Positions 9-35,020 of a stretch of DNA of 64,000 bases are shown piece after piece. The stretch is taken from NCBI GenBank assembly GCA_021735655.1, contig JAIPGM010000002.1, positions 1 to 64,000 of the forward strand. Reading direction: 5' to 3'. The position numbers were made by a program, and so were the translations under genes. Position 1 is the stretch's first letter. Each line of letters begins with the position of its first letter. The stretch is from Candidatus Omnitrophota bacterium (GTDB lineage: Bacteria > Omnitrophota > Gorgyraeia > Duberdicusellales > 4484-171). The notes beneath the pieces are model-generated. The model did not search any database and was not told the DNA's origin. It was given only the letters and a program-made list of their open reading frames with translations.

Positions 9-2180
9 GTGGCAGATATAACAAATAACATGAGTTTGCGTAAGACCGGCATAAAGGTGGTTGGAGATATGCCCTGGGGATCGCATCTATGCCAGTTTTA
101 CCATACTAAAAGAGATTTGCTTGAAATACTCTTACCTTATTTTAAGGCCGGATTAAAGAATAACGAATTTTGTATGTGGGTGACTTCCGAGCCTCTAGGC
201 ACTAAAGAGGCAAAAGGCGCACTTAAGAAAGAGGTAAAAAACCTGGATAGGCTGATTAAAAAGGGGCAGATAGAGATACTGGATTATAGCCAGTGGTACA
301 CAAAGGGCGGCAGGTTCAATGCCGATAGAGTATTAGCCGGCTGGGTAGAGAAAGAGCAGCAAGCCTTAAAAAAAGGGTTCTCTGGCCTGCGTCTTACCGG
401 AAATACCTTCTGGCTGGAAAAGGCAGACTGGGAGAATTTTACCGAGTATGAAGCTAAGGTCAACAATACTATTGGCGGCCGCCGGATGCTGGCTATCTGT
501 ACTTATTCTCTGGATAGATGCAGCGCATCCCAGGTCATAGACGTTGTCAATAATCATCAGTTTGCCCTGATAAAACGCAAGGGCAGGTGGACTTCCGTTG
601 AAAGCTCATCGTACAGAACGGCAATAAATAATTTAGAAGAGATGAACCGTAGATATCAATTGCTTATTGACAATATACGTTTACATATCGCCGTGATAGA
701 CAAAACTGGGAAATTTACCGTGTGGAACAAATATTCGGAAGATTTATTCGGATATACAAAAAGTGAGGCCATTGGGAAGCTTAAGCCAGGGGACATACAT
801 ATTTCCCGTACGGATGCCGCAAGGGTTATCCGCGGCGCGAAAGAAAAAGGTATTTTTGATGATGAAGTTAAGTTAAGGCGCAAAAATGGCTCGCTTGTAG
901 ATGTGCATTTGGTTGTGGTGCCTAATAAAGATCACAAGGGTAATGTAATAAACTACCATGGATTTGGCGAGAACATCACCGAACGTAAGCATGCTGAAAG
1001 ATTTCTACGTCAATCACACCACGGGCTTGAAAAACGCGTTCAAGAGCGCACTCGAGAGCTAAAACAGCTAAACAAGGCTTTGGAAGCGGCAAAGGATAAT
1101 CTTAATAGAGCCCAACAAGTGGCACATATTGGAAGCTGGTATCTCGATATAGCGGATAATGCCTTAGCCTGGTCTGATGAAACCTATCACATATTTGGGT
1201 TAAATATAGGGTCACCGCTTGATTACGCGAAGTTTCTTGAGATCGTTCATCCGGAAGACAGGGAGTATGTTAATATAAGTTGGCAGAACGCCCTACGTCA
1301 AGGGTTCTATGATATAGAGCATCGTATAGTGGTGGCAGGGAGAATAAAATGGGTCAGAGAAAGCGCCCAAGTAGAATTTGATAAGAGAGGTAAGGCTATT
1401 AGGGGCATAGGCACGGTACAGGACATTACTGAACAGAAAGAGCATGAAAAGAATACCCGTAAGCTCCAGCAGGAATTAACTCACGTCTCACGGGTTACGA
1501 CGATGGGAGAACTTACCGCGGCCTTAGCACACGAACTTAACCAACCCCTCATGGCCATTATGAGCAACGCTCAGGCAGCACAGAGATTCCTGGCTAAGAG
1601 CAATCCGGATATAAATGAAATCAAAGAAATACTTTCTGATATTGTCAAAGACGATAAGCGGGCAAGTGATGTTATCAATAAGCTCAGAGCATTAATAAGA
1701 AAATCCGATATCGAGTTTACAATATTAAATATTAATGATGTTGTCAATGAAGTAGTCTCTCTTGTACACAGTGATATAGTTATAAGGAGTATAACCTTAA
1801 ATACAGAACTCAGTGACAAAAATCTTTTTGTGAACGGGGACCGGATACAGTTGCAGCAGGTTATTTTAAATCTTATTCTCAACAGTTTTGAGGCAACGAA
1901 AGATGTTGATTCCAAGAGGGTTCGTATTCGCACGGCAAAAGAGAATGATGAGTCGATTGTCGTTAGTTTTGAGGATGCGGGAACCGGAATTGATGAAGAA
2001 AACCTGAGTCGTATCTTTGAACCATTTTTCACGACTAAGAAAGAAGGCATGGGAATGGGGCTGGCGATTAATAAAGTGATTATTGAATCTCATGGCGGCA
2101 CCTTGTGGGCAGAGAATAATCCCGATAAAGGAGCGACGTTTTATTTTACTTTGCCCATAAGTAAGGAGTGTTCTAAATGA
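9..2180 (+). CDS. Sensor histidine kinase. N-terminal ~200 aa are a non-membrane sensory domain, possibly MEDS-like (GSHLCQFYH). It is followed by two PAS domains, HisKA and HATPase. The 5' end may lie upstream of the window.
   Basis: PAS-like stretches (FTVWNKYSEDLFGYTKSEAIG; IGSWYLDIADNALAWSDETYHIFGL). H-box TTMGELTAALAHELNQPL. ATPase G-boxes DAGTGIDEENLSRIFEPFFTTK and GMGMGLAI. The ORF opens with GTG at 9 with no in-frame stop upstream. Confidence 0.85.
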   Translation: MADITNNMSLRKTGIKVVGDMPWGSHLCQFYHTKRDLLEILLPYFKAGLKNNEFCMWVTSEPLGTKEAKGALKKEVKNLDRLIKKGQIEILDYSQWYTKGGRFNADRVLAGWVEKEQQALKKGFSGLRLTGNTFWLEKADWENFTEYEAKVNNTIGGRRMLAICTYSLDRCSASQVIDVVNNHQFALIKRKGRWTSVESSSYRTAINNLEEMNRRYQLLIDNIRLHIAVIDKTGKFTVWNKYSEDLFGYTKSEAIGKLKPGDIHISRTDAARVIRGAKEKGIFDDEVKLRRKNGSLVDVHLVVVPNKDHKGNVINYHGFGENITERKHAERFLRQSHHGLEKRVQERTRELKQLNKALEAAKDNLNRAQQVAHIGSWYLDIADNALAWSDETYHIFGLNIGSPLDYAKFLEIVHPEDREYVNISWQNALRQGFYDIEHRIVVAGRIKWVRESAQVEFDKRGKAIRGIGTVQDITEQKEHEKNTRKLQQELTHVSRVTTMGELTAALAHELNQPLMAIMSNAQAAQRFLAKSNPDINEIKEILSDIVKDDKRASDVINKLRALIRKSDIEFTILNINDVVNEVVSLVHSDIVIRSITLNTELSDKNLFVNGDRIQLQQVILNLILNSFEATKDVDSKRVRIRTAKENDESIVVSFEDAGTGIDEENLSRIFEPFFTTKKEGMGMGLAINKVIIESHGGTLWAENNPDKGATFYFTLPISKECSK

Positions 2181-2806
2181 GGCGGCCGCTTCCAATTGTA
2201 TTCATCGCCGACGATGATCCATCGGTGCGTAAAAGCTTGGAGAGGTTAATCAAGTCGGCGGGATTTAAAGTGGAGGCCTTTGCTTCGTCGGAAGAGTTCC
2301 TTCAACGGAAAATCCATAAAGGAGCCCCAGCTTGCTTAGTACTCGATGTGCGCATGCCGGGATTAAGCGGCATCGATCTTCAAGGAGAACTTGTTCGAAA
2401 GGGTATTTTGCTGCCGATCATATTTATTACCGGCCACGGTAGCATTCCTATGAGTGTTAAGGCGATGAAAAACGGCGCCGTAGATTTTTTACCAAAACCC
2501 TTTGGTGAAGAAGAACTGCTTTCAGCAATAGACCGGGCAATAGAAAAGTGCGGACAGATGCAAAAAAATGACGCGGAAAAGGCAAAAATCCAGCGCCGGG
2601 TCAAGACCCTTACCCCAAGAGAATACGAGTGTTTACGCTGGGTAATTACGGGAATGCTGAATAAACAGATTGCTCCTAGATTAGGTGTTACAGAGAAGAC
2701 GATTAAAGTTCATCGTGGTCGCCTGATGCATAAAATGCAAGCTGTATCGGTTGCCGACCTTGTCCGCCTTACCCAAAAGTGCGGAATAACCCCAGCCAAA
2801 AAGTAA
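2177..2806 (+). CDS. Response regulator, NarL/FixJ family (REC + LuxR-type HTH)
   Basis: REC motifs (IADDDPS, LVLDVRMPG, KPF). C-terminal LuxR HTH LTPREYECLRWVITGMLNKQIAPRLGVTEKTIKVHRGRLMHKM. Start overlaps the kinase stop by 4 nt. Confidence 0.9.
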   Translation: MRRPLPIVFIADDDPSVRKSLERLIKSAGFKVEAFASSEEFLQRKIHKGAPACLVLDVRMPGLSGIDLQGELVRKGILLPIIFITGHGSIPMSVKAMKNGAVDFLPKPFGEEELLSAIDRAIEKCGQMQKNDAEKAKIQRRVKTLTPREYECLRWVITGMLNKQIAPRLGVTEKTIKVHRGRLMHKMQAVSVADLVRLTQKCGITPAKK

Positions 2807-2817
2807 CTCGCCCCCTA

Positions 2818-2862
2818 TTGGACTAAGGTCCAATTTACAGCATTTCTTCACTCTGATATCAT
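2818..2862 (+). promoter_or_regulatory. Perfect 16-bp palindrome TTGGACTAAGGTCCAA abutting a sigma70-like promoter (TTTACA-17-TATCAT). A second copy lies at 13712-13756.
   Basis: Read directly: ttggactaaggtccaa tttaca gcatttcttcactctga tatcat. Nearly identical composite at 13712-13756 (ttggaccaaggtccaa tttaca N17 taatat). Confidence 0.55.
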
Positions 2863-2870
2863 CACTACTG

Positions 2871-3254
2871 ATGATCAAGATTAAACCAAAAATCTACATA
2901 GTTGACGATGATGAGTCCATTCGGCGAGCCCTGAGCCGTCTCATGAAATCTACCGGCTATGAGGCGGAAACGTTTGATTCGGCCCAGCTATTTTTGGACT
3001 CTGTTCCTCCCGATACTCAAGGTATCTTGATTTTGGATATTCGCATGCCGGATATAGACGGTTTTGAACTTCAAAGAAGATTAAACGTTTCGCGTTCTAA
3101 GTTGAGGATTATTTTTATTACCGCACACGCTCAGGCAGGAGACCGTGAACGTGCGATGAAAGCTGGCGCGAAAGGTTTTTTGCAGAAACCATTTAACGAA
3201 ACCTCGCTCTTAGATTTGATAAATTCTATATCCATTGAGAAGGATAAAAGATAG
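2871..3254 (+). CDS. Single-domain response regulator (CheY-like receiver)
   Basis: KIYIVDDDESIRRAL, ILILDIRMPDIDGFEL, IIFITAH, KPF. No output domain. Confidence 0.85.
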   Translation: MIKIKPKIYIVDDDESIRRALSRLMKSTGYEAETFDSAQLFLDSVPPDTQGILILDIRMPDIDGFELQRRLNVSRSKLRIIFITAHAQAGDRERAMKAGAKGFLQKPFNETSLLDLINSISIEKDKR

Positions 3255-3262: not shown

Positions 3263-3679
3263 ATGGAATCTAAAATACTGATTATGGATGAAGATGAAGA
3301 ATTTTTAAAATGGGTTGAAAAAATATTAGCTTTAGCGGGTTATAACACTTTTGCATCTAGCAAAGAAGCCTTTGTAAACGGTAATTTTTTTGGAATAAAA
3401 TTTGATACTGTGCTGGTGAAGTTCGATGAATTTGAAAATAAGGAATATCATTTGGTTGATAAATTACGCCAGATGTCGAACAGAATTATCCCGATCATAG
3501 AAAAAAAATTGTTTTCCAGAAATGCGATTTTAAAACTATTTGAAACACTGGGGATTAAAAAATATCTTTTAAAGCCTTTTAATCCCTTGGATGTAATTGC
3601 CGCAATTGAGATGATTCCAGAAGTAGAATATCCGGAAAATGCAGTAGAAACCATAGCTGTAGAAAAGGGAGGTGGTTAA
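3263..3679 (+). CDS. Atypical receiver-domain-like protein
   Basis: ILIMDEDEEF, VLVKFDEF and LLKPFNPLDV resemble REC topology with a divergent acidic pocket. Confidence 0.45.
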   Translation: MESKILIMDEDEEFLKWVEKILALAGYNTFASSKEAFVNGNFFGIKFDTVLVKFDEFENKEYHLVDKLRQMSNRIIPIIEKKLFSRNAILKLFETLGIKKYLLKPFNPLDVIAAIEMIPEVEYPENAVETIAVEKGGG

Positions 3680-7633: not shown

Positions 7634-8059
7634 ATGAGAGATCATGTTTATAAAGTTGTTGAGCTTGTCGGGTCTTCAAAAGCCACCATAGAAGATGCGG
7701 TTAAAAACGCTCTTTCCAAGTCGTCGGAATCTATCAGAAATTCACGATGGTTTGAGGTTAATCAAATAAGGGGGGAAATAGAAGACGGCGAAGTATCGTA
7801 TTGGCAGGTTGGGTTAAAGCTGGGGTTTACAGTCGAAGGGAGCAGCCGGAAAGAAGAGGTACCTGTCGAAACAAGTAAAAAAGCGGCAAAAACAGGGAAA
7901 TACCAATGCAAGGTTTGCAGCTATATCTATGATCCCGAAAAAGGTGACCCGGATAACGGCATAAAAGCGGGGACCTCTTTTAAAGATTTACCCGATGACT
8001 GGAAATGCCCGGAATGCGGTGTAAACAAGGATCAATTTGAAGAAATGAAGGGAGAGTAA
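7634..8059 (+). CDS. Dodecin - rubredoxin fusion protein
   Basis: N-terminal ~70 aa match the dodecin fold sequence ([12 protein letters not shown] ... [11 protein letters not shown] ... [13 protein letters not shown]). C-terminal ~50 aa are a rubredoxin ([14 protein letters not shown] ... WKCPECG). Confidence 0.75.
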
Positions 8060-8060: not shown

Positions 8061-8915
8061 ATGGATAGAAGAATTACCTTGAAGTCAAAAACACTGTTTT
8101 TGGCAGGCAGGAGAGTCAAAGAAGGAGACTCGGCGTCACAATTTTATGCAGTTGATAGCGAGCTTAAGGAAGTTAAACTAACTGACTACAAAGATTCTAT
8201 AAAAATCATCACCTCTTTTCTTTCTCTGGATACACCTACTTGTAATTTGCAAGTTAAGGAATTTAACAAAAGGGCTAGCAAGTTGGCAGAAGATATTGTT
8301 GTTATCGGCATCAGCCAGGATTTACCTTTCGCCCAAAAGCGCTTTTGTGAGGCGAATAAAATCGAGAAGGTAATAACTCTTTCTGATTACAAAACCAACT
8401 CTTTTGGCATTAATTACGGCCTTTTGATTAAAGAACTGCGCCTTCTGGCCCGTGCGGTTATTATTGTAGATAAAAACAATGTCATTCGTTATGTTTCGAT
8501 TGTTCAAGAGGCAAGTGATGAGCCGGATTACCAGTCAGCGCTAAAGGCACTAAAAGATGTGATCGAAAAACCATTTCTTAAGGGATCCCAAGAGAGGCCT
8601 TCTCATTGTCTTCCCTGTGAAGCCGGTACCCCACCGCTTAAAGAGGGCCGCATAGAGCAGTTAATGGCTACTGTTGAGGGCTGGGAACTTATCGAAGGCA
8701 AGAAAATAAAAAAGACTTTTAAATTCAAAGATTTTATTGAGGCCAAATATTTTTTGGATATTATTAGCGTCATTGCCGAAGAGCAGGGCCATCATCCTAA
8801 CATCACGATTATTTATAATAAAGTAACGATTACGCTTACCACTCACGCTATCGGCGGGCTTAGCGATAATGATTTTATTATGGCTCAGATCATAGATGAA
8901 ATAGGGGGGGCCTGA
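8061..8915 (+). CDS. Thiol peroxidase (Tpx-like peroxiredoxin) fused to pterin-4a-carbinolamine dehydratase
   Basis: Tpx-like region with peroxidatic Cys context (SLDTPTCNLQ) and resolving Cys (KRFCEA). C-terminal PCD/DCoH motif EEQGHHPNITIIYNKVTITLTTH. Confidence 0.7.
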   Translation: MDRRITLKSKTLFLAGRRVKEGDSASQFYAVDSELKEVKLTDYKDSIKIITSFLSLDTPTCNLQVKEFNKRASKLAEDIVVIGISQDLPFAQKRFCEANKIEKVITLSDYKTNSFGINYGLLIKELRLLARAVIIVDKNNVIRYVSIVQEASDEPDYQSALKALKDVIEKPFLKGSQERPSHCLPCEAGTPPLKEGRIEQLMATVEGWELIEGKKIKKTFKFKDFIEAKYFLDIISVIAEEQGHHPNITIIYNKVTITLTTHAIGGLSDNDFIMAQIIDEIGGA

Positions 8916-10201
8916 TGAAAAGAGTCATAGCGATATATCGTTGGGGACTCATATTGATAACCGGATTTGTTTTATTATTTTTGCCGAAACTTGCCCAAGC
9001 CGAGATACACGCTGAAACTATAGAGTATAAAGACGGCGAGGTTATTTTGGAAGGGTATCTTGCTTATGATGACTCAATAAAAGAAAAACGTCCCGGGGTT
9101 TTAGTCGTGCATGAGTGGACAGGCATAAACGATTATATAAAACAACGTGTTAATCAATTGGCAGAAGAAGGTTATATAGCTTTTGCGGCTGATATTTATG
9201 GTAAAAGCATCAGACCGCAAAATAAGGAAGAAGCGGCTAAGCAGGCGGGCATTTACCGTGCCGACCGTAAACTCATGCGCAGAAGGGTACAGGCGGGTTT
9301 GGCCTGCCTTAAAAAAAATCCGATCACCGACCCTTCGCGTATTGCCGCGATAGGTTATTGTTTCGGCGGTGGCGTGGTCTTGGAGCTTGCCCGAAGCGGA
9401 GCTGATGTCGAGGGAGTGGTAAGCTTTCATGGCAACCTGGATACTCCTAACCCGGAAGACGCCGGAATGATAAAAGCGAAAGTGCTGGTTCTTCATGGTG
9501 CCGATGATCCCCATGTTCCAATGAGACAGGTAAAAGATTTTGAGAGGGAAATGGACCGGGCAAATGTGGATTGGCGCATGGTAAGTTACAAAGGCGCTGT
9601 CCATAGTTTTACGAATCCGGCGTCCGGAAACGATCCTTCCACGGGCGCGGCTTACAACAAAGAAGCGGATATGAATTCATGGAAAGAAATGATTGCCTTC
9701 TTTAATAAAATATTTCACGATTATAATTGGCCTTTAGAGGCTATGGCAAATATTACCGATACTAGTGGTAAAGAAGTAGGGAAGGTGCTGTTTAGGGAAA
9801 ACGAAGGCCGCGGAGTAACCATAGATTTAAAGCTACATTCATTTTTACCGGGCAGGCACGCTTTTCATATACATGAATTTCCTGTTTGTGATGCGCCGGA
9901 CTTTAAATCAGCAGGAGGGCATTTTAATCCTTATGGAAAACAGCATGGGTTTCTGAACGAAAAAGGCCACCATGCCGGGGATTTGCCAAATATCATTGTA
10001 GAGGAAAATGGTAATTGCCAGATGTCTTTCACTACGACACAGATAACTTTAAGAAAAGATAAGGAAAATTCTATATTAAGAAAGTTTGGGACATCTCTGG
10101 TGATTCATGAGCTGCCGGATGATTATTTCACCGATCCGGCCGGAGGCGGCGGCAAGAGGCTTGCCTGCGGAACAATAAAAGAAGTGGAGGTAAAAAGGTG
10201 A
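8915..10201 (+). CDS. Secreted dienelactone hydrolase - Cu/Zn superoxide dismutase fusion
   Basis: Signal peptide. DLH-family core (VLVVHEWTGIN ... GYCFGGG ... LVLHGADD). C-terminal SodC motifs (HAFHIHEFPVCD ... GGHFNPYGKQHG ... HAGDLPNI ... LVIHELPDD ... RLACGTI). Confidence 0.75.
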   Translation: MKRVIAIYRWGLILITGFVLLFLPKLAQAEIHAETIEYKDGEVILEGYLAYDDSIKEKRPGVLVVHEWTGINDYIKQRVNQLAEEGYIAFAADIYGKSIRPQNKEEAAKQAGIYRADRKLMRRRVQAGLACLKKNPITDPSRIAAIGYCFGGGVVLELARSGADVEGVVSFHGNLDTPNPEDAGMIKAKVLVLHGADDPHVPMRQVKDFEREMDRANVDWRMVSYKGAVHSFTNPASGNDPSTGAAYNKEADMNSWKEMIAFFNKIFHDYNWPLEAMANITDTSGKEVGKVLFRENEGRGVTIDLKLHSFLPGRHAFHIHEFPVCDAPDFKSAGGHFNPYGKQHGFLNEKGHHAGDLPNIIVEENGNCQMSFTTTQITLRKDKENSILRKFGTSLVIHELPDDYFTDPAGGGGKRLACGTIKEVEVKR

Positions 10202-11690: not shown

Positions 11691-12629
11691 ATGGCTGATG
11701 ATTACGACGTGATTATCATCGGTGGCGGCCCTGCGGGATTAACCGCAGGTATCTACGCCGCCCGGACCGGATTATATACGCTGGTCATCGACAAGAATAT
11801 TCTTGCCGGTGCATTAGGCTCTACGTCAAGAATAGAAAATTACCCCGGCATTCTTAAACCGTGTTCCGGCCGGACGCTGATCGGTAAACTCCGGCGGCAG
11901 GCTCAAAAGTTTGGGGCTGAGCTTGTGCGAGAGCGCGTGTTACACACCGAACTGGAGGGTCCCGTCAAAAAGGTCGTTTCCGAAGCCCGGGAATACCGCT
12001 CTCGTAGCCTGATTGTCGCCAGCGGGGCCATGGGGAGGAAGGCTTCGGTGGACGGCGAAAAGGAGTTCCTGGGCAAAGGGGTGAGTTACTGCGCGGTATG
12101 TGATGCGCCTTTCTTTCGCGGCAAGAAGGTTGCCCTGGTGGGAGGTATCGAGGAAATAAGTCAGGAGATCGGGGTTATCGCCAAATTCGCCAGTGCGATA
12201 TATATTGTAAGTCTTCAGGCGATAGATAGTCCAGGGAAGAAGACGATCGACTTCGCTGATAACCTTACCGTTTTCACTAACCACCGGTTGAGCAAGATCT
12301 ATGGGGCAAGGGCCGTTGAGGGTGTTGAAATAATCTCGGCCGGGGGCCAGCGAAAACAGATCGCGGTCGATGGGGTATTTATGTATCTGCACGGCAATCG
12401 GCCGCTGGTCGATTTCCTTGGTGATCATTTGAAAACTGGAAGCGATCGCTGTTTGATTGTAAATAGAGAGGATATGTCTACTTCCCTCGAAGGGGTGTTC
12501 GCTGCCGGCGATGTTATATGTACCAGGATCCGCCAGGCTGTGGTCGCGGCTTCAGAGGGGTGCATTGCCGCTCTTTCGGCGGAGAAATATATTATGCAGA
12601 GGCGGTCGCCTCGTGCGCAATGGCACTGA
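11691..12629 (+). CDS. Thioredoxin reductase-like FAD/NAD(P) disulfide oxidoreductase (GC-rich copy)
   Basis: DVIIIGGGPAGLTAGIYAAR, redox CAVCDA, second Rossmann GKKVALVGGIE. Local GC is well above the flanking sequence. Confidence 0.75.
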   Translation: MADDYDVIIIGGGPAGLTAGIYAARTGLYTLVIDKNILAGALGSTSRIENYPGILKPCSGRTLIGKLRRQAQKFGAELVRERVLHTELEGPVKKVVSEAREYRSRSLIVASGAMGRKASVDGEKEFLGKGVSYCAVCDAPFFRGKKVALVGGIEEISQEIGVIAKFASAIYIVSLQAIDSPGKKTIDFADNLTVFTNHRLSKIYGARAVEGVEIISAGGQRKQIAVDGVFMYLHGNRPLVDFLGDHLKTGSDRCLIVNREDMSTSLEGVFAAGDVICTRIRQAVVAASEGCIAALSAEKYIMQRRSPRAQWH

Positions 12630-13402: not shown

Positions 13403-13711
13403 ACAGCGGCCCTTAAAGAGGCATTCGGGATAAAAAAAGGGGGGGGTGATTACGATGGCCAGACTGAAAAATATCAAGGAAAAGGCTAAGCGGGTAATCG
13501 AAAAAGCAAAAAGTAAAATGAAATGTAAATGTTGAAAGGCCTTGCTGTTAAAGGGAGTGCATTACAAATGAGATGAAAAACAAAAAGGTCAGAAGTGACT
13601 CATCTGCGCAAGATTGCCATTGAATAGCCAGCTAGCATCGTAGCAAGAAAGACTCAAGATCCTCTGCCGACGCTTTAAAAAAAGGGGGTCTTGAGTTTAT
13701 TTTTTCCCTTA

Positions 13712-13756
13712 TTGGACCAAGGTCCAATTTACATCATTTTTTCATTTTGATAATAT
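13712..13756 (+). promoter_or_regulatory. Second copy of the TTGGAC-N4-GTCCAA palindrome + TTTACA-17-TAATAT promoter, upstream of the nrnA ... arsSM operon
   Basis: ttggaccaaggtccaa tttaca tcattttttcattttga taatat. Compare 2818-2862. Confidence 0.55.
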
Positions 13757-13862
13757 CTATGTGTCAATTTAGGGCGGAGCATTCTCCGACAGAAGTTAAC
13801 TTAAAAATAGCCTAAAAATTAGGCAAAAGAGTATGCCGGGTTGCTGGGAAATTAGCTGAAAA

Positions 13863-14816
13863 ATGAGTAATTTAAGGACAATCAAAGAACGAATATTCAA
13901 AGCGAAGGATTTCGTCATCGCCTGCCACCGGAATCCCGATGGCGATTGCATTGGTTCTCTTTTAGCCTTAGGTTTGGGCTTGAAAACTTTAAAAAAAAGA
14001 GTGATTATGGTTTCTCAAGACGGGGTGCCTTTAAGCTATAGAGGGCTACCGGGGGCCAATAAGATAACTAGAAGATTAGGGAAAGTGCCGGATATGGCCA
14101 TAACCGTGGATTGCAACTCAAAAGAAATGGTTGGCAGGCCGTTTAAGACTATACGGAAAGCAAAGTATTTATTAGAAATAGACCACCATGAATTTAGGGA
14201 ACCATATGGCAACATGTTTCTCATAGACACAAAAGCGGCGTCTGTAGGCGAAATGGTTTATAAGTTATTGTATTATTTAAGAATAGGCATAACCAAAGAA
14301 ATAGCCGAAAATATATTAACTTCTATAATTGTTGAGACTAATTCATTCCGGCTTCCTACAGTAAAGCCGGCTACTTTTAACATTTGTTACAAACTCCAGA
14401 AAACCGGAGTGGACTTTCATAAAATTTCCGAAACAGTTTATTGGTCGAAAACTAAACAAGCAGTAATACTTTCCGGCATCTGTATGTCCAAACTCGAATT
14501 TTCGCGAAACGGTCAAATAGCCTGGTCAATAGTATCAAAAAAAGATTTTTCCAGCGTGAAGGGCAGGGACGAAGACGTAGACCCCGTGGCTAACGATATA
14601 CTTGCGATAAAGGCGATCAAGATAGCAGTTTTATTCCGGGAAAAGAGCCAAAATATTTTAAGGGTAAGTTTAAGAGCAAAAGGAGGCATAAATGTTGCCT
14701 CGCTTGCTTATAAATACGGCGGCGGCGGCCATTTTGATTCTGCCGGGTGCCAGATCACTAATACTAAAAAAGAGATCAGAGGTTTTATCGAAGCGGCCAA
14801 GCGGTTATTGAGATGA
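13863..14816 (+). CDS. nrnA: DHH/DHHA1 phosphoesterase (NrnA-like oligoribonuclease / pAp phosphatase)
   Basis: CHRNPDGDCIGS (DHH motifs), IDHHEF, C-terminal GGGGH DHHA1 motif. Confidence 0.8.
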   Translation: MSNLRTIKERIFKAKDFVIACHRNPDGDCIGSLLALGLGLKTLKKRVIMVSQDGVPLSYRGLPGANKITRRLGKVPDMAITVDCNSKEMVGRPFKTIRKAKYLLEIDHHEFREPYGNMFLIDTKAASVGEMVYKLLYYLRIGITKEIAENILTSIIVETNSFRLPTVKPATFNICYKLQKTGVDFHKISETVYWSKTKQAVILSGICMSKLEFSRNGQIAWSIVSKKDFSSVKGRDEDVDPVANDILAIKAIKIAVLFREKSQNILRVSLRAKGGINVASLAYKYGGGGHFDSAGCQITNTKKEIRGFIEAAKRLLR

Positions 14817-15427
14817 AACGTATACTTATTGTTTTTGCCAAAGAGCCTCAGGAAGGCAGGGTAAAAACCCGGCTGTTGGACTGTTTATCCGCTAGAGAAT
14901 GCCTTAAGCTTTATAAGAAGTTGTTAAAAAATACGGTCAGCTTAGCCAGAAAAGTAAAATGTAGCGGAAGAATTATGGCTTATGATTCTTATAATCAAAG
15001 GGCGCCTTTTCTCGAAAGAATAGCTTCGGATTTTACATTTTATAAACAGGCTGGAAGAGGCCTCGGAGCAAGAATGTTTGATGTTTTTAAAGCGATTCTT
15101 AAAAGTAATACTAAAGCGGTGATTATCGGCTCGGATTCACCGAATCTACCGATAAATTATATAGACCGAGCTTTTGAGAAACTTAGTAAAAACGATCTTG
15201 TCTTAGGCCCCGCCGATGACGGCGGCTATTATCTCATTGGCCTTAAACAGCCATGTAAAAAATTATTCGAAAATATAAAATGGAGCTCTGGTACGGTGTT
15301 CGATAGAACGGTCAAGAAGGCAAAAAAACTAAAGAAGAAGACCACTGTTTTGGATTATTGGTATGACATAGATGAGCCAAAAGATTTAAAATATATTAGA
15401 AAAAAGCCTGAAAGTGTTGATCGATGA
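14813..15427 (+). CDS. DUF2064 (TIGR04282-type) glycosyltransferase-partner protein
   Basis: RILIVFAKEPQEGRVKTRL ... GPADDGGYYLIG. Confidence 0.65.
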   Translation: MKRILIVFAKEPQEGRVKTRLLDCLSARECLKLYKKLLKNTVSLARKVKCSGRIMAYDSYNQRAPFLERIASDFTFYKQAGRGLGARMFDVFKAILKSNTKAVIIGSDSPNLPINYIDRAFEKLSKNDLVLGPADDGGYYLIGLKQPCKKLFENIKWSSGTVFDRTVKKAKKLKKKTTVLDYWYDIDEPKDLKYIRKKPESVDR

Positions 15428-16098
15428 AAGTATCAATAATTATACCAACCTATAATGAAGAAAATAGTATCGAGAGTACTTTAGGGCCCTTGATCGGTGA
15501 AAATGGTTGTGAAGTCATTGTTGTGGATGGATATAGCAAGGATAGGACAAAGGAGATCGTCCGTAGCTACCCGGTTATTTTTAAGCAGGCTGGTAAAAAT
15601 AGAGCTAATCAGCTCAATGCGGGCGCCGGCATTGCCGGCGGGGATGTTTTAGTGTTTCTTCACGCTGATTGTATTTTGGAAAAAGGTGGCTTGCCGGCAA
15701 TTATAAATAGTGTTAAAAAGGGGTTTATCGGCGGATGTTCCTCGCAAAGAATAAATTCCTCGGCTTTAATTTATAGGTTCATTGAGGCGTCAGGAAATAT
15801 CCGGGCAAAGCTCTCTCATATCTTTTACGGCGATCAAGCCATTTTTGTCAGAAGAGACATATTCCAAAAAATTGGCGGCTTTGACGATGTCGCCCTGTTT
15901 GAGGATATTATATTTTCCCGAAAACTTAAAAAATACGGCAAGACCTGTACTTTAAAGAATAAGATATTTACATCTGCGCGGCGCTGGGAAAAACAGGGAA
16001 TCATCAAGACGACCTTGATTAACTGGCTGGTCAGTATTGGATTTTTTTTTGGTATCGCCCCGCATATTTTAAAGAAAATATATTCTGAGGTACGGTGA
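15424..16098 (+). CDS. Family 2 glycosyltransferase (TIGR04283-like)
   Basis: VSIIIPTYNEE ... VVDGYSKDRT ... FLHADC. Translationally coupled to the DUF2064 gene. Confidence 0.75.
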   Translation: MKVSIIIPTYNEENSIESTLGPLIGENGCEVIVVDGYSKDRTKEIVRSYPVIFKQAGKNRANQLNAGAGIAGGDVLVFLHADCILEKGGLPAIINSVKKGFIGGCSSQRINSSALIYRFIEASGNIRAKLSHIFYGDQAIFVRRDIFQKIGGFDDVALFEDIIFSRKLKKYGKTCTLKNKIFTSARRWEKQGIIKTTLINWLVSIGFFFGIAPHILKKIYSEVR

Positions 16099-16101
16099 GT
16101 T

Positions 16102-17532
16102 ATGAAATATGATTACGATTTGATTATTCTAGGCGGAGGAGCTGCCGGATTGTTTGCTGCCAGTGTGGCTAATACTTTGGGAGCAAAGGTAGCGATAGTT
16201 GAAAAGCATAGATTAGGCGGGGATTGTACCTGGTACGGATGCATACCGTCTAAAGCGCTCATTAGATCAGCACAGGTTGCTCATAATCTATGCTGCCCGG
16301 AGAAGTTTGGTTTATCTTTAAAGAGGGCCTGCGGCATCGAAGCCGGTTCGGTGATGGCGCATGTCCGGGATGTAACTATTGAAATCGCCGCTCATCATAA
16401 GCCCGAGGATCTAAGAAAGAGAGGGATCGAGATCATCTTCGGTAGCCCTCATTTTATAGATGAAGCAACCGTTAAGGTCAGCGATAAGATATATAAAGCG
16501 AAAAAGTATATCATTTGTACAGGTTCTCATCCGTTTATTCCAACCATAGAGGGCTTAAGGGAAATAGATTATTTGACTAACGAAACCATATTTGATTTAA
16601 AAGAGCTGCCAGGAAGCTTAATTGTTTTAGGCGGCGGGCCGATCGGCATAGAGCTGGCCCAGAGCCTTAAAAGATTGGGTGTTGAAGTCTCGGTAGTGGA
16701 GATGTTAGATAGAATTGTTCCTAAAGAAGACAGAGAAGTAGCAGAAGTTTTGGAGCAAAAGCTAAAAGCCGAAGGCATCAGGCTTATGACATCTCATAAG
16801 GCGGTTAATTTCGTCAAAAATACTGATAAAATAACAGTAACCCTGGAAGATAAGGGAAAAAATAAATCAGAAATCAGCGCCGATAAAGTTTTGGTCGCGG
16901 TGGGAAGGGCTGCGAATATAGCGGGGCTTGATTTAGAACGCTGCGGTGTAAATCACGATAAAAAATCAATTGAAGTAAACAAATTTTTGCAGACAACCAA
17001 CAAGAATATTTTTGCAGCCGGAGATGCGGTCGGCCCTTATATGTTCAGCCATGTAGCAGCTTATCAAGCTTCGATCTGCGTAAGAAATGCGATGTTTAAA
17101 AGATTAGCCTGGCAGAAAGCGAGTTATGAAAATATTGCCTGGGCTACTTTTACCGAACCGGAAGTCGCCCATTTGGGATTGACCGAAGAAGAAGCGAGAA
17201 AAAAATACAAGAAAATAAAAATTTACAAGTCGGATTATATTAAGTCAGACCGGGCGGTTACTGATTTAGAAAAGGACGGTTTAGTCAAAGTTATCTGCGA
17301 GCGAAACGGCAATATAATAGGGGCGCATATTGTTGGAGCCGCTGCCGGAGAAATTATCCAGGGCCTTTCAATAGCTAAATCCCAGAAAATACCTTTAAGT
17401 AAAATTGCCCAAACAATTTTTGTTTACCCTACTTTATCAGAGCTGATCAAGAAAACTGCGGCCTTGAATTTAGTCGAAAAGATGCAAAACCGGCTTATAA
17501 AGTTAGCTCTTAAAATAATGAGGCAAAATTGA
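16102..17532 (+). CDS. Class I pyridine nucleotide-disulfide oxidoreductase (mercuric reductase / dihydrolipoyl dehydrogenase-like)
   Basis: DLIILGGGAAG, redox-active GGDCTWYGCIPSK, second Rossmann LIVLGGGPIGIE, dimerisation-domain HP motif. Confidence 0.75.
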   Translation: MKYDYDLIILGGGAAGLFAASVANTLGAKVAIVEKHRLGGDCTWYGCIPSKALIRSAQVAHNLCCPEKFGLSLKRACGIEAGSVMAHVRDVTIEIAAHHKPEDLRKRGIEIIFGSPHFIDEATVKVSDKIYKAKKYIICTGSHPFIPTIEGLREIDYLTNETIFDLKELPGSLIVLGGGPIGIELAQSLKRLGVEVSVVEMLDRIVPKEDREVAEVLEQKLKAEGIRLMTSHKAVNFVKNTDKITVTLEDKGKNKSEISADKVLVAVGRAANIAGLDLERCGVNHDKKSIEVNKFLQTTNKNIFAAGDAVGPYMFSHVAAYQASICVRNAMFKRLAWQKASYENIAWATFTEPEVAHLGLTEEEARKKYKKIKIYKSDYIKSDRAVTDLEKDGLVKVICERNGNIIGAHIVGAAAGEIIQGLSIAKSQKIPLSKIAQTIFVYPTLSELIKKTAALNLVEKMQNRLIKLALKIMRQN

Positions 17533-17533
17533 T

Positions 17534-18205
17534 ATGGAAAAAAAGCGATTCGTCAAATCGCCATGGTTTAAAACTATATTTATAGTCGCTGCGCTTGTTG
17601 TGGTAATCATAGTCTTAAGGGCTGTTAATGTTGATTTTTCTAATATTAGCGAGGAGAAGTTCAAAAACTGGATTGAGTCTCTCGGTATCTGGGGGCCTCT
17701 AGCCTATATTGTGTTATATATTTTGCGGCCGCTTATTTTATTTCCGGCTGCTGTTTTTTCGGCTGTGGCTGGTATTATCTGGGGAACCGGCCTGGGATTT
17801 CTTATTCTTTTGATCGCCGCTAATTTATCAGCAACAGTGGAATTTATCTTCGCTCGGTATGCTGCACGTCAGATCATAGAAAGACATCTCGGCCAAAGAG
17901 CAGCCACACTTGACAAAAAAATTCAAAAACACGGGTTCGTTACCGTGCTATTGATACGTTTGATACCCAATCTGGCCTGGGACATCCAGAATTTGACTCT
18001 TGGTTTAACCAGCCTGAAGCTCCGGGATTACTTTTTGGCCACACTTATCGGGATCATCCCCGGGTCTTTTGCTTTGGTATTTTTTGGCGCATCCTTTATA
18101 AAGGTTATTTATAACCCCAAGAATGTTTGGATTTTGGGAGTAGCCATTTTAATTTTCGCCGGTATTTATTATTCCAAGAAATATATTGCCAAGAAACACG
18201 GATAG
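17534..18205 (+). CDS. TVP38/TMEM64 (DedA/SNARE-associated) membrane protein
   Basis: Multiple TM helices and a DedA-family core. Commonly paired with the preceding oxidoreductase. Confidence 0.7.
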   Translation: MEKKRFVKSPWFKTIFIVAALVVVIIVLRAVNVDFSNISEEKFKNWIESLGIWGPLAYIVLYILRPLILFPAAVFSAVAGIIWGTGLGFLILLIAANLSATVEFIFARYAARQIIERHLGQRAATLDKKIQKHGFVTVLLIRLIPNLAWDIQNLTLGLTSLKLRDYFLATLIGIIPGSFALVFFGASFIKVIYNPKNVWILGVAILIFAGIYYSKKYIAKKHG

Positions 18206-18214
18206 AGGTTTTTC

Positions 18215-20224
18215 ATGAACCCTTTTTTGAATGTTTTAGAATCACAAAATATACCGAAAGAATCCTGTTTAAAAAGAGCAGAGTTGACCACCCTGCAGGT
18301 TAATATGGGCGACCTTTGCAATCAAAGCTGTTCGCATTGTCATGTGGGCTCCTCGCCCCAGGGAAAGAAGATCATGCCGCTGGAAGTGGTTGACCGAATT
18401 TTAGAGTTTCTTTCAAAAAACAGAGGGCTGATATTGGATATAACCGGCGGCGCGCCGGAACTCAATCCCAATTTCGATTATTTCCTTGAGAAAGCAAGGC
18501 CGCTGGCCAGGGAGATTGTCATAAGGTCGAATCTGACCGTGTTTTTTGAACCCGGTAAAGAATACTTGCCCGAATTTTTTAAAAGGAATAACATACATCT
18601 TATATGTTCACTTCCCTGTTATGAGGAAAAAAATGTAGACGCCCAAAGAGGCCTGGGTGTATTTGAAAAGAGTATAAAAGCGCTTCAGCTGCTAAATAGC
18701 TGTGGATACTCTCAAGATAAAGAACTGGTCTTAGACCTTGCATATAATCCTAAAGGTATAAATCTGCCTCCTCAACAGGATATCCTTGAAAGAGAGTACA
18801 GAGAAAACCTTAAAAAAAGTTACGGAGTGGAATTTAACAGACTCGTTGCTATGACCAACGTTCCGATAAAAAGATTCAAGGAATATTTGGAAGCCAACGG
18901 CGAATATAGTAATTATGTCCGGCTCCTGGAAGATAATTTCAATCCTGATACGGTTACCGGTATTATGTGTCGGCGGTATCTCAGTGTAGGCTACGACGGA
19001 AAATTATACGACTGCGATTTTAACCAATCACTTAACTGGGCTTTAAAGGACGAGAAGGCTAAGCCTCTTAGTATAGATAAAGTAGATATAAAAGATATTG
19101 AAAACAGAGATGTTATGGTGGGGGAGCACTGTTTTTCATGTACCGCAGGCTTCGGTTCAAGCTGCCAGGGAGCGCTTGACATTAAGGAAACCGTAAAAGC
19201 GTATTACGGCAAAGTCCTTAAAACCACAAAAGACCTAAAGACGACCGCCTGTTGTTCAGTAGATGCTATGCCTAAAAAGCAAAGAGAATACTTGGCTAAA
19301 ATCCACCCCGAAATTTGTGATAAATTTTATGGCTGCGGCTCTCCTATCCCACCGCTTTTAAAGGACCTAAAAGTTTTGGATTTAGGTTGTGGCACAGGCA
19401 GGGATACTTATCTGGTTTCACAGATGGTAGGGAGCAGGGGTTTTGTTATCGGCGTCGACATGACCGATGAACAACTCGATATAGCGAGGAAGCACATTGA
19501 TTACCAGACAGAAAAATCCGGTTTTAAAAAGCCTAATGTTGATTTTAGGAAGGGTTATATAGAAAACCTAAAAAGTGTCGGTATAAAGGATAACTCTATA
19601 GACTTGGTTATATCAAACTGCGTTATTAATCTTTCACCGGATAAGATAGGGGTGTTCTCGGAAGTTTTCCGTGTCTTAAAACCGGGAGGTGAATTTTATT
19701 TCGCCGATGTATTCTGCGGCCGCCGGATGCCGGAACACCTCAAGCATGACTCGGTACTTTACGGTGAATGCCTGGGAGGGGCGCTTTACATAGAGGATTT
19801 TCGCCGTAGTTTAAGAAAAATCGGCTGTTTGGATTATAGAGTAGTAACTTCCCGAAGAATAGCGCTTAACAATAAAGAAGTTGAAGAGAAAGTCGGCGGG
19901 ATTGATTTTTACTCTATGACTATACGGGCTTTTAAGCTGGATGATTTGGAAGACATCTGCGAAGATTATGGCCAGACTGCTGTTTATCTTGGCACGATAT
20001 CCGGATGCGCGCACCAATTCAAACTTGACGATCATCATCTGTTTTTTACCGGCAAACCGATGCTTGTGTGTGGGAATACCGCTTCAATGCTTTCAAATAC
20101 ACGGTACGGTAAACATTTTAAAATAGTTGGAGATAAAAGCCGTCATTTTGGGCCGTTTCCCTGTGGGCCAACTCCCGCGGCATCAAAGACCGATGTAGTC
20201 AAAACCGGCGGCAGTTGTTGTTAA
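18215..20224 (+). CDS. arsSM: Fusion of arsenosugar-type radical SAM protein (ArsS-like) and arsenite S-adenosylmethionine methyltransferase (ArsM-like)
   Basis: N-term has the radical SAM cluster motif CNQSCSHC plus LSVGYDGKLYDCDFNQSL and a Cys-rich CFSCTAGFGSSC region. C-term has ArsM Cys pairs (TACCS, YGCGSP), the SAM motif VLDLGCGTGRD and VLKPGGEFYFADV. One continuous 669-aa ORF. Confidence 0.7.
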   Translation: MNPFLNVLESQNIPKESCLKRAELTTLQVNMGDLCNQSCSHCHVGSSPQGKKIMPLEVVDRILEFLSKNRGLILDITGGAPELNPNFDYFLEKARPLAREIVIRSNLTVFFEPGKEYLPEFFKRNNIHLICSLPCYEEKNVDAQRGLGVFEKSIKALQLLNSCGYSQDKELVLDLAYNPKGINLPPQQDILEREYRENLKKSYGVEFNRLVAMTNVPIKRFKEYLEANGEYSNYVRLLEDNFNPDTVTGIMCRRYLSVGYDGKLYDCDFNQSLNWALKDEKAKPLSIDKVDIKDIENRDVMVGEHCFSCTAGFGSSCQGALDIKETVKAYYGKVLKTTKDLKTTACCSVDAMPKKQREYLAKIHPEICDKFYGCGSPIPPLLKDLKVLDLGCGTGRDTYLVSQMVGSRGFVIGVDMTDEQLDIARKHIDYQTEKSGFKKPNVDFRKGYIENLKSVGIKDNSIDLVISNCVINLSPDKIGVFSEVFRVLKPGGEFYFADVFCGRRMPEHLKHDSVLYGECLGGALYIEDFRRSLRKIGCLDYRVVTSRRIALNNKEVEEKVGGIDFYSMTIRAFKLDDLEDICEDYGQTAVYLGTISGCAHQFKLDDHHLFFTGKPMLVCGNTASMLSNTRYGKHFKIVGDKSRHFGPFPCGPTPAASKTDVVKTGGSCC

Positions 20225-20237: not shown

Positions 20238-20256
20238 TTCCGCCGCGTCGGCGGAA
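20238..20256 (+). terminator. GC-rich hairpin ttccgccg-cgt-cggcggaa followed by an A/T run. Likely the arsSM terminator.
   Basis: 8-bp perfect stem with a 3-nt loop read directly. Its reverse-complement twin lies at 20310-20328. Confidence 0.45.
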
Positions 20257-20566
20257 AAATTTGCTATCTGAAACACCTTTGTTCTATTAGCTTATTTTAA
20301 TACGGTCAATTCCGCCGACGCGGCGGAATTGGTTTGACAATACGGTAGATTAAACAAGGAAGTAAATAATGAACTCTACACCCGAAGAAATCAGAGATAT
20401 GGAACATATGCACAGGAAAATGAGCTATAACCAGATTACGGAGTATATTTACGCGGGAAACAACCTGTGTTGTCAGACACATTTTGAGATGGAGTTATTA
20501 GCAAAAGGAATTTCCGCTAAATACAGTGCAAAAAGCCTTTTTAGTTAATTATACCGGGAGGTCCTG

Positions 20567-22279: not shown

Positions 22280-23329
22280 ATGGACAACAATAAAAAAATA
22301 TTTCTTTATGATTCGAAGCCTTATGATCAAGAAGCTTTTGATCAGGCCAATAAAAAGCATGGTTTTGATATCCAGTATTTCAATGGGCATCTAAACCATA
22401 ATACAGCTTGTTTGTCTAAGGGCAGTGATGCGGTTTGTGCTTTTGTTAACGATACAATAGATAAGCCGGTAGTGGAAGTTCTTAAAGAGTGTAATATCGG
22501 CTTAATTGCCTTACGCAGTGCCGGATATAACAATGTTGATTTAAAGGCAGCTTACGGCACTATCCATGTGGCCCGGGTGCCGGGGTATTCTCCTTATGCG
22601 GTGGCCGAACACGCCAGCGCTCTTTTATTGAGCCTGAACCGGAAAACTCATAAAGCTTATCACCGGACACGCGAGGGAAATTTTTCAATCAACGGCTTGA
22701 TCGGCTTTGACCTTCACGCTAAAACCGCTGGGGTTATCGGAACCGGAAAGATCGGGCGTTGTTTGATATCGATTCTGAAAGGCTTTGGGATGAAGGTCCT
22801 GGCCTATGATGTTTATCCCGATGAAGAATATGCAGAGGCTAGCGGCATTAGCTATACGGACTTGCCCGAGCTGTATGCTAAATCGGACATTATTTCTCTG
22901 CATTGCCCGTTAAACAAAGATACCTACCATTTGATCGACAACCAAAGTATAAACCAGATGAAGCCGGGTGTTTTTTTAATAAATACCGGCCGGGGAGGCC
23001 TGGTAAAAACTCAAGACCTCATTGAAGGGTTAAAGAGCGGTAAAATAGGCGCTGCCGGCCTGGATGTGTACGAAGAAGAAAGCGAGTATTTTTTTGAAGA
23101 TTTTTCAGCTTCGATGATCAGCGATGATATCCTGGCCCGGCTTTTGACCTTTCCCAATGTACTTATCACATCACATCAGGGATTTTTCACAAAAGAAGCG
23201 TTGAGCAATATTGCCGAAACTACTTTAGCTAATATTAAAGAGTATTTTGAAGGAGGTTTTTTAAAGAATGAAATCTGTTACCGCTGCGATAAACAATGCT
23301 GCAAGAAACAAAAACAGCGCTGCTTTTAA
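22280..23329 (+). CDS. ldhA: D-isomer-specific 2-hydroxyacid dehydrogenase (D-lactate dehydrogenase-like)
   Basis: GVIGTGKIGR NAD-binding motif and catalytic R/E/H region. The last ~20 aa (Cys-rich) arise from overlap with the sigma-factor gene and may not be real. Confidence 0.75.
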   Translation: MDNNKKIFLYDSKPYDQEAFDQANKKHGFDIQYFNGHLNHNTACLSKGSDAVCAFVNDTIDKPVVEVLKECNIGLIALRSAGYNNVDLKAAYGTIHVARVPGYSPYAVAEHASALLLSLNRKTHKAYHRTREGNFSINGLIGFDLHAKTAGVIGTGKIGRCLISILKGFGMKVLAYDVYPDEEYAEASGISYTDLPELYAKSDIISLHCPLNKDTYHLIDNQSINQMKPGVFLINTGRGGLVKTQDLIEGLKSGKIGAAGLDVYEEESEYFFEDFSASMISDDILARLLTFPNVLITSHQGFFTKEALSNIAETTLANIKEYFEGGFLKNEICYRCDKQCCKKQKQRCF

Positions 23330-24095
23330 GCAGAAACTAAAGAGTATTTTTATCGCTTACCAGGATAAAATTTATGGCCTGGCTTTGAGTATCTGCCGCA
23401 ATCCTAAAGACGCCGAAGATATCACTCAAAATACATTCAGTAAGATTATTCTTAATTTGGATAAATTCCGCGGCCAATCCAATATTGCTACCTGGATTTA
23501 CCGGATTAGCTATAACGAAGCTTTGATGTTTTTACGGAAAAAGCGCCGCGATTTGAGGTTACAGGACAATATCGATTATCATATCTTAAAAGACAGATCC
23601 GCGGTATTGGCGGATTGGCCGTTGCTTCCTGATGATTTATTGGTGAATAAAGAATTACACCGGAAAATCAATTCGTCCATACAAAGGCTGGATCTTAAGT
23701 ATCGCTTACCCTTGTTGTTGCATCATGTCCATGGCTTAGCGATAAAAGAGGCAGCTAAAGTTTTAGATATAAAGGCCAATTCCTTTAAAACCAGGCTCCA
23801 TCGGGCCTATCTAATGCTGCGGGGCGAGCTAACCGCCTATTTCGCCGATGCTCGGGAGGAAAAAATCGGTTTTAAAACATTGGTTTGCGATCGTTCGCTT
23901 AAATTCATTTATGATTATTCTTGCAATAAGCTCGGCAGCCGGCAGCGTTTAAGATTCGACCAGCATATTAAAGATTGCCGTCCCTGCCGTAGTTTTCTAA
24001 ACGATTATCAGCAGGCAATAAAAATAACTCAGTCTTTACAGTGTCGTGATTTACCAGAAGCGCTTCGGGAAAAACTAAAAACTCTTTTTACTTAA
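23268..24095 (+). CDS. ECF-type sigma-70 family factor with a C-terminal ZAS-like (H-x3-C-x2-C) zinc-finger extension
   Basis: Region 2 (DITQNTFSKIILNLDKFRG ... WIYRISYNEAL) and region 4 (LAIKEAAKVLDIKANSFKTRLHRA). An extra ~80-aa tail carries CDRS ... C ... HIKDCRPCRSF. Confidence 0.7.
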   Translation: MKSVTAAINNAARNKNSAAFKQKLKSIFIAYQDKIYGLALSICRNPKDAEDITQNTFSKIILNLDKFRGQSNIATWIYRISYNEALMFLRKKRRDLRLQDNIDYHILKDRSAVLADWPLLPDDLLVNKELHRKINSSIQRLDLKYRLPLLLHHVHGLAIKEAAKVLDIKANSFKTRLHRAYLMLRGELTAYFADAREEKIGFKTLVCDRSLKFIYDYSCNKLGSRQRLRFDQHIKDCRPCRSFLNDYQQAIKITQSLQCRDLPEALREKLKTLFT

Positions 24096-32958: not shown

Positions 32959-33012
32959 TCGATAGGCGATGGGGTTCGCCGTTAACCGCCTCAACAGGCT
33001 GATAACTCCTAC
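32958..33012 (+). promoter_or_regulatory. Fluoride riboswitch (crcB RNA motif)
   Basis: ataGGCGATGGggTTCGCCgttAACCGCCtcaacaggCTGATAACTCCTAC matches the crcB-motif consensus, directly upstream of the crcB RBS. Confidence 0.85.
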
Positions 33013-33036
33013 TTAAATGAAAGGAGGGATTTGTCT

Positions 33037-35013: not shown

Positions 35014-35020
35014 GAAGCCT

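Follow-up and report, generated by a model that had tools for sequence, protein, structure and literature searches.

An inverted repeat fused to a sigma-70-type promoter as the probable operator of a FixJ-like response regulator in Omnitrophota and other phyla

Two operons in the 64,000 nucleotides of Omnitrophota DNA analysed here (contig JAIPGM010000002.1; the whole stretch is called the window) were preceded by the same compound element, an inverted repeat (the box) that runs directly into the -35 hexamer of a promoter. Judged from its sequence and from its company in other genomes, the box with its promoter is very probably the operator-promoter of the FixJ-like response regulator encoded next to the first copy. 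With somewhat less confidence, this regulator is likely to activate transcription rather than to repress it. The features concerned were as follows.

9..2180, + strand: sensor histidine kinase with MEDS, two PAS and a FixL-like HisKA/HATPase core (Pfam); the ORF possibly starts before the window
2177..2806, + strand: response regulator with REC and GerE/LuxR HTH, FixJ/StyR subfamily, recognition helix EKTIKVHR; proposed binder of the box
2817..2834, + strand: box copy 1, A-TTGGACT-AA-GGTCCAA-T, beginning 11 nt past the regulator stop codon
2834..2862, + strand: promoter 1, with -35 TTTACA (2834-2839), a 17-nt spacer and extended -10 TGaTATCAT (2854-2862)
2871..3254, + strand: gene for a canonical single-domain receiver (CheY-like), the first gene of a packed run
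13650..13706, + strand: strong terminator-like hairpin with T-run (-23.4 kcal/mol, z = -3.6), placed immediately ahead of box copy 2 and ending the transcription unit upstream; the tail of the hairpin is kept in locus L110
13711..13728, + strand: box copy 2, A-TTGGACC-AA-GGTCCAA-T, a perfect 7-2-7 repeat, with orthologous copies in L110/L111 and L112/L113
13728..13756, + strand: promoter 2, with TTTACA (13728-13733), a 17-nt spacer and extended -10 TGaTAATAT (13748-13756); a leader of about 100 nt lies ahead of nrnA
13863..20224, + strand: operon behind promoter 2, encoding an nrnA-like DHH/DHHA1 phosphoesterase, DUF2064, GT2, a pyridine-nucleotide disulfide oxidoreductase, DedA/VTT and an ArsS-ArsM fusion

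The box of copy 1, TTGGACTAAGGTCCAA (2818-2833), was followed by TTTACA, the 17-nt spacer and TATCAT (2857-2862), and that of copy 2, TTGGACCAAGGTCCAA (13712-13727), by TTTACA, a spacer of the same length and TAATAT (13751-13756). The TG of an extended -10 element (TGn) was present in both copies (2854-2855 and 13748-13749), and the whole module read A-TTGGACYAAGGTCCAA-T abutting TTTACA-N17-TGnTAnnAT at either site (2817-2862 and 13711-13756). The earlier sequence-only reading had reported a palindrome joined to TTTACA-N17-TAnnAT in two places, and the sequence was as described at both. Its gene surroundings were also as stated, save that the gene called arsSM is more precisely a fusion of an ArsS radical-SAM protein and an ArsM methyltransferase. 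The perfect 16-bp palindrome of that reading stood as an inverted repeat next to the -35 and was revised in its details: the layout was 7-2-7, with complete symmetry in copy 2 only (TTGGACC AA GGTCCAA) and one T/G mismatch in copy 1, the central AA was non-symmetric, and with the flanking A and T the repeat measured 18 bp. Two half-sites of about 7 bp suit a dimer, whether read as 7-2-7 or as 6-4-6, and this was supported by the column counts of the unbiased sites described below.

By chance, the exact 15-base pattern would be met about 1e-4 times in the 128 kb of the two strands. When the 64-kb window was scored with a weight matrix derived from related sites, just two copies were found, each in front of an operon; as no third copy was seen, a larger local regulon cannot be claimed. 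Within the window, the picture was different from that of a generic dispersed repeat (REP/MITE-like). In a simple promoter scan, both promoters were among the better matches of the first 20 kb, promoter 1 with 10/12 hexamer matches plus TG, and both were near consensus (-35 5/6, 17 nt spacing, -10 5/6 plus TG). No RNA family was detected by the Rfam scan at either box site. The two copies were identical at 44 of 52 bases (2812-2863 against 13706-13757), the promoter spacer included, and copy 2 is therefore probably a duplicate of the promoter of copy 1.

The association of the box with the regulator was evaluated in other genomes. The motif TTGGAC-N4-GTCCAATTTACA was scanned in one genome per species (185,579 species genomes), and 26 loci were obtained, with about 17 expected by chance, from Bacillota, Omnitrophota, Planctomycetia/Brocadiia (Planctomycetota), Thermodesulfobacteriota/Desulfobacterota, Binatia, Acidobacteriota and others. 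The YAAR centre, which had been left free in the scan, was present in 20 of the 26 (p=1.6e-31). Five chance-like hits (L004, L008, L010, L019 and L024), all without promoter-like context and four with non-YAAR centres, were excluded as support. In at least 13 loci, from Bacillota, Omnitrophota, Planctomycetia, Desulfopila and others, the box stood directly after an orthologue of the regulator (49-81% identity), which was itself preceded by a PAS kinase, and a receiver-only gene followed directly 3' of the box in most of these loci, L011 being an exception. One MAG (L022/L025) carried a second box elsewhere, heading receiver, ECF sigma and SOR (superoxide reductase) genes. Both window copies were kept at orthologous positions in other genomes.

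Because the 26 loci had been chosen by the motif, a separate set was built without motif selection. Starting from the regulator alignment, 80 metagenome loci were collected with protein homology as the sole criterion, and 77 of them were scorable. A box with at most 2 mismatches was located within 200 nt past the regulator stop codon in 21 of the 77, compared to 0.58 expected by chance, and the distance from stop codon to box was 5-13 nt in many loci. The presence of the box depended on the recognition helix: it followed 20 of 44 regulators with the helix EKT[IV]KVHR and, of the 33 whose helix was different, a single one (Fisher p=1.9e-5). The other 24 of the 44 EKT-type regulators had no box within 200 nt downstream, so adjacency is frequent, not universal. 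Regulators with ERT or xQT helices were paired with TTGTAC..GTACAA or TTATAC..GTATAA boxes in four loci (L071, L070, L043 and L079), one of them the single box-positive locus outside the EKT type, and this co-variation of helix and box, at four loci, hints at a direct read-out of the box by the regulator. In 18 of the 25 metagenome loci with a box, the next gene downstream of it was a receiver-only gene. Tandem boxes, two or three per locus with a 22-bp period, were present in L042 and L071, as would be expected for cooperative binding along one face of the helix. The NarL/FixJ-type regulator encoded next to copy 1, earlier named as the candidate reader, was thus strengthened as the predicted binder by the tie between the box and its orthologues across phyla, and its nearest solved relatives were StyR and FixJ.

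Boxes were also clustered in some genomes. Five occurred in L011 (at 416, 1215, 3175, 4143 and 5474) and three perfect ones in the Binatia locus L020 (at 2071, 3216 and 7634), in each case within 8 kb and in motif-oriented coordinates; these headed, among others, zwf-cydAB, sortase, formylglycine-generating-enzyme-like and MarC-family genes. Peroxiredoxin, TusA and zwf-cydAB were among the box-driven genes of other phyla, which were mostly oxygen- or redox-related; TusA may fit this theme as well. The box-driven peroxiredoxin gene of L015 (Thermodesulfobacteriota), about 110-750 nt past the box, showed an in-frame TGA at the position of the peroxidatic cysteine (FTFV*PTE), and its product is probably a selenocysteine peroxiredoxin.

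The position of the box relative to the promoter was constant. In the window, the end of the box and the -10 were 23 nt apart, and 13 of the 21 unbiased sites, whose loci were chosen without any promoter sequence, had TAnnnT downstream of the box at a distance of 23-24 nt (p=4e-15). The hexamer adjoining the box was variable in these sites, the -35 often being poor. When ten orthologous intergenic regions (Omnitrophota-like, Planctomycetia and Bacillota) were aligned, three islands of conservation stood out besides the box: the TG, the -10, and an ATG at a distance of 7-8 nt from the latter. With a predicted start near 2869-2871 for promoter 1, the box would cover about -51 to -36, with its centre at about -43.5 to -45.5, which, measured against predicted promoter elements, corresponds to a class II site (next to the -35, with a centre about 41-45 bp before the start). 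The class II-like joining of palindrome and -35 proposed earlier was supported by the fixed 23-24 nt from box to -10 in unselected loci; activation would follow from this position. Read in the direction of the downstream gene, the two central bases (2825-2826 and 13719-13720 in the window) were AA at 19 of the 20 unbiased sites and TT at one (p=4e-5), an orientation bias that goes beyond simple symmetric binding of a dimer.

The proteins encoded around copy 1 were consistent with a FixL/FixJ-like pathway. The regulator gene overlapped the end of the kinase gene (2177-2806 against 9-2180), and the kinase gene also preceded the regulator in related loci; the kinase is the presumed partner of the regulator. 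The kinase core was closest in PDB to FixL chimeras, and against the NCBIfam FixL model the kinase scored 278 bits, under the cut-off of 850. For the regulator, the nearest solved structures were StyR (1yio, 5e-53, full length) and FixJ (5xso, 5e-43), with NarL and DevR far behind (DevR structure 3c3w, 7e-10). The FixJ model was the best NCBIfam match for both the regulator (209.5 bits, cut-off 255) and the receiver-only protein.

The receiver gene started with an ATG 8 nt past the -10, which leaves no space for a Shine-Dalgarno sequence, and its mRNA is therefore probably leaderless. A receiver-only gene starting 7-8 nt after the -10 without a Shine-Dalgarno sequence was also observed in L002, L003, L006, L007, L013, L014, L016, L023 and L026. 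This leaderless-type arrangement was conserved across Omnitrophota, Planctomycetia and Bacillota loci, a leaderless mRNA being the prediction from sequence. The run headed by the receiver gene was tightly packed to 11497 and followed, after a gap of 193 nt, by TrxR (11691-12629). Its products were SOR, ferredoxin, a ferritin-like protein, a 2-oxoacid:ferredoxin oxidoreductase, dodecin-rubredoxin, Prx-PCD, DLH-SodC, DJ-1 and hemerythrin.

Several of these products were unusual domain fusions, namely dodecin-rubredoxin (7634-8059), peroxiredoxin-pterin-4a-carbinolamine dehydratase (8061-8915) and dienelactone hydrolase-Cu/Zn superoxide dismutase (8915-10201), and the first two fusions were kept in related Omnitrophota contigs. 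The 138-aa ORF after the receiver (3263-3679) had no Pfam hit, a faint receiver-like match and a homologue in L026, and it may be a degenerate pseudo-receiver.

At copy 2, homologues of the NrnA-like protein were looked up and their contigs were read. The window protein was 100% identical to an NCBI protein recorded under Candidatus Omnitrophica. The operon at 13863..20224 was compact, with gene overlaps or gaps of at most 9 nt. In another Omnitrophota genome (L110/L111), the intergenic site was about 95% identical to 13690-13775 of the window (about 85 nt), against just 67% identity for NrnA itself, and the match spanned the upstream terminator tail, the box and the promoter to about 20 nt beyond the -10. 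The promoter there headed an FMN reductase gene, an RnfD-like gene, an unknown gene, nrnA, msrAB, ldh and HAD, and in a third genome (L112/L113) the box and promoter were placed ahead of doxX-zip-nrnA. In three relatives (L108, L110 and L114), nrnA was directly followed by msrAB, while in the window the block from DUF2064 to ArsS/ArsM (14813-20224) stood between nrnA and msrAB (20567). Since copy 2 is conserved before nrnA operons and the arsenic block separates nrnA from msrAB here alone, the conserved member of the regulon is nrnA, and, as read from these gene orders, the arsenosugar-type genes joined the nrnA operon by an insertion specific to this lineage. The sequence-only reading had placed both operons of the window in one regulon; for copy 2 this agreed with its retention before nrnA-containing operons in other Omnitrophota, and for the arsenic genes it applies to this lineage only.

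The block itself (14813-20224) was an arsenosugar-type cluster, its ArsS/ArsM fusion giving 408 bits with TIGR04167, above the cut-off. Right after the arsS/M stop codon and ahead of a small ORF, a 19-nt G+C-rich hairpin sequence, TTCCGCCGCGTCGGCGGAA (20238-20256), and its exact reverse complement (20310-20328) enclosed 53 A+T-rich bases; no such pair was expected by chance. The arrangement may represent a small inverted-repeat element or two terminators serving both directions. Past the -10 of copy 2-type promoters (5640-5660 in L112, 13757-13775 in the window), the sequence still resembled the first part of the receiver gene (TTGATGATTTAA in L112); this remnant suggests that these secondary promoters are descended from a duplicated receiver promoter.

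The element was compared with characterised systems. Promoters of the LuxR/TraR class II type carry a lux or tra box near -42, where a dimer occupies an inverted repeat just upstream of or overlapping the -35. The window regulator shares the GerE/LuxR HTH fold with these proteins, but they are activated by ligand instead of phosphorylation, and their boxes of 18-20 bp are unrelated in sequence. The STY and Tod boxes of StyS/StyR and TodS/TodT are 16-bp repeats of the form ATAAAC-N4-GTTTAT. The box of the window has the same 6-4-6 layout and the same AC..GT inner bases, whereas its outer half-site is TTGGAC instead of ATAAAC and the helix that would read it is EKT instead of EVT. Among solved structures, that of StyR, from the Pseudomonas styrene operon, came closest to the regulator. 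Phosphorylation makes StyR dimerise, and it activates the styrene promoter from STY2, an inverted repeat of high affinity located about 40 bp ahead of the start (PMC2442086). The two systems differ in kinase and signal and in their targets, antioxidant genes in anaerobes here and aromatic catabolism there, and neither an IHF site nor upstream or downstream auxiliary boxes were seen in the window.

In Caulobacter, the FixL-FixJ pathway controls the single-domain receiver FixT, which inhibits the kinase (PMC7078487). The likeness lies in the best match of regulator and receiver to the FixJ model, in the FixL-like kinase core and in a receiver under control of the pathway, and by analogy the window receiver, as a direct first target, may give FixT-like negative feedback. 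Differently from FixL/FixJ, the window proteins fell below the equivalog cut-offs (209.5 against 255 and 278 against 850), the sensor part consisted of MEDS and PAS, the targets suggest induction by oxygen stress instead of hypoxia, and the receiver gene would be a direct target, in contrast to the control of FixT through FixK. A FixT-like Fe-S receiver was rejected, as the window receiver contains no cysteine and the 4-Cys Fe-S cluster of FixT is therefore impossible.

The DosR/DevR system of Mycobacterium tuberculosis was also considered. The DosR consensus is TTSGGGACTWWAGTCCCSAA, with core GGACTWWAGTCC (PMC2275270), and the inner 12 bp of the window box, GGACYAARGTCC, fit this core. Both systems have a redox or oxygen theme, a start-proximal site overlapping or abutting the -35 and sites packed for cooperative binding, of which the start-proximal site overlapping the -35 and the close packing of sites are described as common features for DevR (PMC3029386). 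The window regulator is distant from DevR, however, and the box measures 18 bp against 20 bp, has other outer bases and occurs singly at each window promoter. Assignment as a DosR/DevR regulon box was rejected, given a DevR match of 7e-10 against 5e-53 for StyR and a consensus fit limited to the inner 12 bp.

From the sequence features, the fixed geometry and the cross-phylum linkage, we infer the following mechanism. Each copy would be a compound operator-promoter, in which the 18-bp repeat serves as the site of a regulator dimer and abuts the -35 of a sigma-70-type promoter. The FixL-like kinase (9-2180) would answer a signal, probably oxygen or redox stress in view of the regulon content, and phosphorylate the regulator. 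The phosphorylated regulator would dimerise, occupy the box centred near -43.5 and help RNA polymerase to start transcription; the box geometry and the protein family together point to a phosphorylation-dependent activator that docks beside sigma region 4. Promoter 1 would drive the leaderless receiver gene and then the antioxidant genes, and the product of the receiver gene probably exerts feedback on the kinase, either by drawing off phosphate as a sink or by inhibiting it. Promoter 2 would drive nrnA, together with the arsenosugar-type genes that follow it by insertion in this lineage.

The sign of regulation is the part of this mechanism with the strongest competitor. The same regulator could bind the same box as a repressor that blocks RNA polymerase at an intrinsically strong promoter until the signal releases it, a reading we consider unlikely and still the best placed of the alternatives. 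The near-consensus window promoters are unusual for activator dependence, so they may be active without an activator, and in this respect repression fits as well as activation; their extended -10 elements likewise make an activator seem dispensable, and binding at a site in contact with the -35 can shut sigma region 4 out. On the other hand, a box at about -51 to -36 leaves the -35, the spacer and the -10 free, and the unbiased loci combine poor -35 conservation with a fixed distance from box to -10, as is typical of activator-dependent promoters. The characterised relatives with the same geometry, StyR at STY2 and DevR, are moreover activators (PMC2442086, PMC3029386).

There is only a small chance that the repeat is read by another, unlinked factor, such as a CRP/FNR-type dimer on TTGGA-N6-TCCAA, with the neighbourhood of the regulator being coincidental. 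The size and symmetry of the box and its position near -42 also suit CRP/FNR class II sites, which are similar in all three. No CRP/FNR-type gene was found, however, among the ORFs annotated between 1 and 41.5 kb, and none recurred by the box in other genomes, for which reason the CRP/FNR reading was rejected. The FixJ-like regulator was the only gene consistently adjoining the box across phyla, and the dependence of the box on its recognition helix also speaks against an unlinked reader.

The ECF sigma factor encoded at 23268-24095 was dropped as a reader of the box, the site being of a symmetric dimer type with a sigma-70-like -10 and TG, and the sigma gene being absent from many box-positive loci. 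This ECF-type protein has a C-terminal extension, and its gene lies downstream of msrAB-HAD-2-hydroxyacid dehydrogenase, with homologues in L022, L025, L028 and L110. In other genomes, homologues were placed directly behind the box or the receiver gene, a position that suggests a second regulatory tier.

A function mainly as RNA, in which a 3' stem-loop terminates or stabilises the kinase-regulator transcript and the nearness of a promoter is secondary, is slightly less probable again than an unlinked reader. It would explain why copy 1 starts 11 nt after the regulator stop and why the box lies 5-13 nt after the stop in many loci, and the copy has a folding energy of -8.7 to -10.7 kcal/mol (z = -2.8 to -3.6). 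However, the terminator scan made no call, the stem has 3-4 G-C pairs and is followed by three U in a tail (UUUACA) that is not conserved in other loci, so that the picture is not that of an intrinsic (Rho-independent) terminator. No regulator gene stands ahead of copy 2, nor of several copies in other genomes, and copy 2 is immediately preceded by a separate strong terminator. The sequence is conserved, not the pairing alone: CAAA centres break the would-be closing pair, and the loop bases and the flanking promoter spacing are kept. The terminator reading of the box was rejected on the terminator scan, the folding and the pattern of conservation.

The 44/52 identity of the copies, non-functional-looking spacer included, would be accounted for if they had no regulatory role and were a generic dispersed repeat or the product of a recent local duplication. 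This reading has next to no probability given just two copies in 64 kb, both before operons, their conserved orthologous positions and their cross-phylum recurrence in fixed promoter phase.

The preferred reading, an operator-promoter of the FixJ-like regulator, describes an element that is ordinary in kind, namely the operator of a response regulator fused to the promoter of its target. What exceeds the usual is the near-identical conservation over distant phyla, combined with the cassette of kinase, regulator and receiver, and the regulon appears to be undescribed and unusually widespread: searches of the literature for the box strings and for a MEDS kinase/FixJ/superoxide reductase system found no description of the box or the system. 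A larger proposal is tentative, with rather less than even chances in our judgement. It holds that the box and promoter, the FixL-like kinase, the EKT-helix regulator and the leaderless receiver form one horizontally mobile "three-component" oxygen-stress cassette, cis-element included, that has spread through at least six phyla of mostly uncultivated anaerobes. The result would be an undescribed pan-phylum regulon, which has here captured arsenosugar biosynthesis, and the oriented AA would reflect an operator read asymmetrically together with RNA polymerase.

The box ATTGGACYAARGTCCAAT, the fixed promoter geometry and the named regulator subfamily would make up a code for how uncultivable lineages, among them Omnitrophota, Binatia and digester Bacillota, regulate their oxygen and redox defence, and with this code members of the regulon could be predicted from MAGs. 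The box already links SOR, peroxiredoxins, Cu/Zn SOD, MsrAB, cytochrome bd, G6PDH, the NrnA-like phosphoesterase and, in one lineage, the arsenosugar genes. The helix and box variants also form a natural series for how helices of the FixJ/NarL type read DNA.

Two further features of the window, apart from the box, were recorded. A fluoride riboswitch (32956-33018; 62.7 bits, gathering score 34) was detected directly upstream of the crcB fluoride channel gene (33031-33423), and the genes for DUF6088 and an AbiEii nucleotidyltransferase (34414-36046) constituted a type IV toxin-antitoxin or abortive-infection pair.
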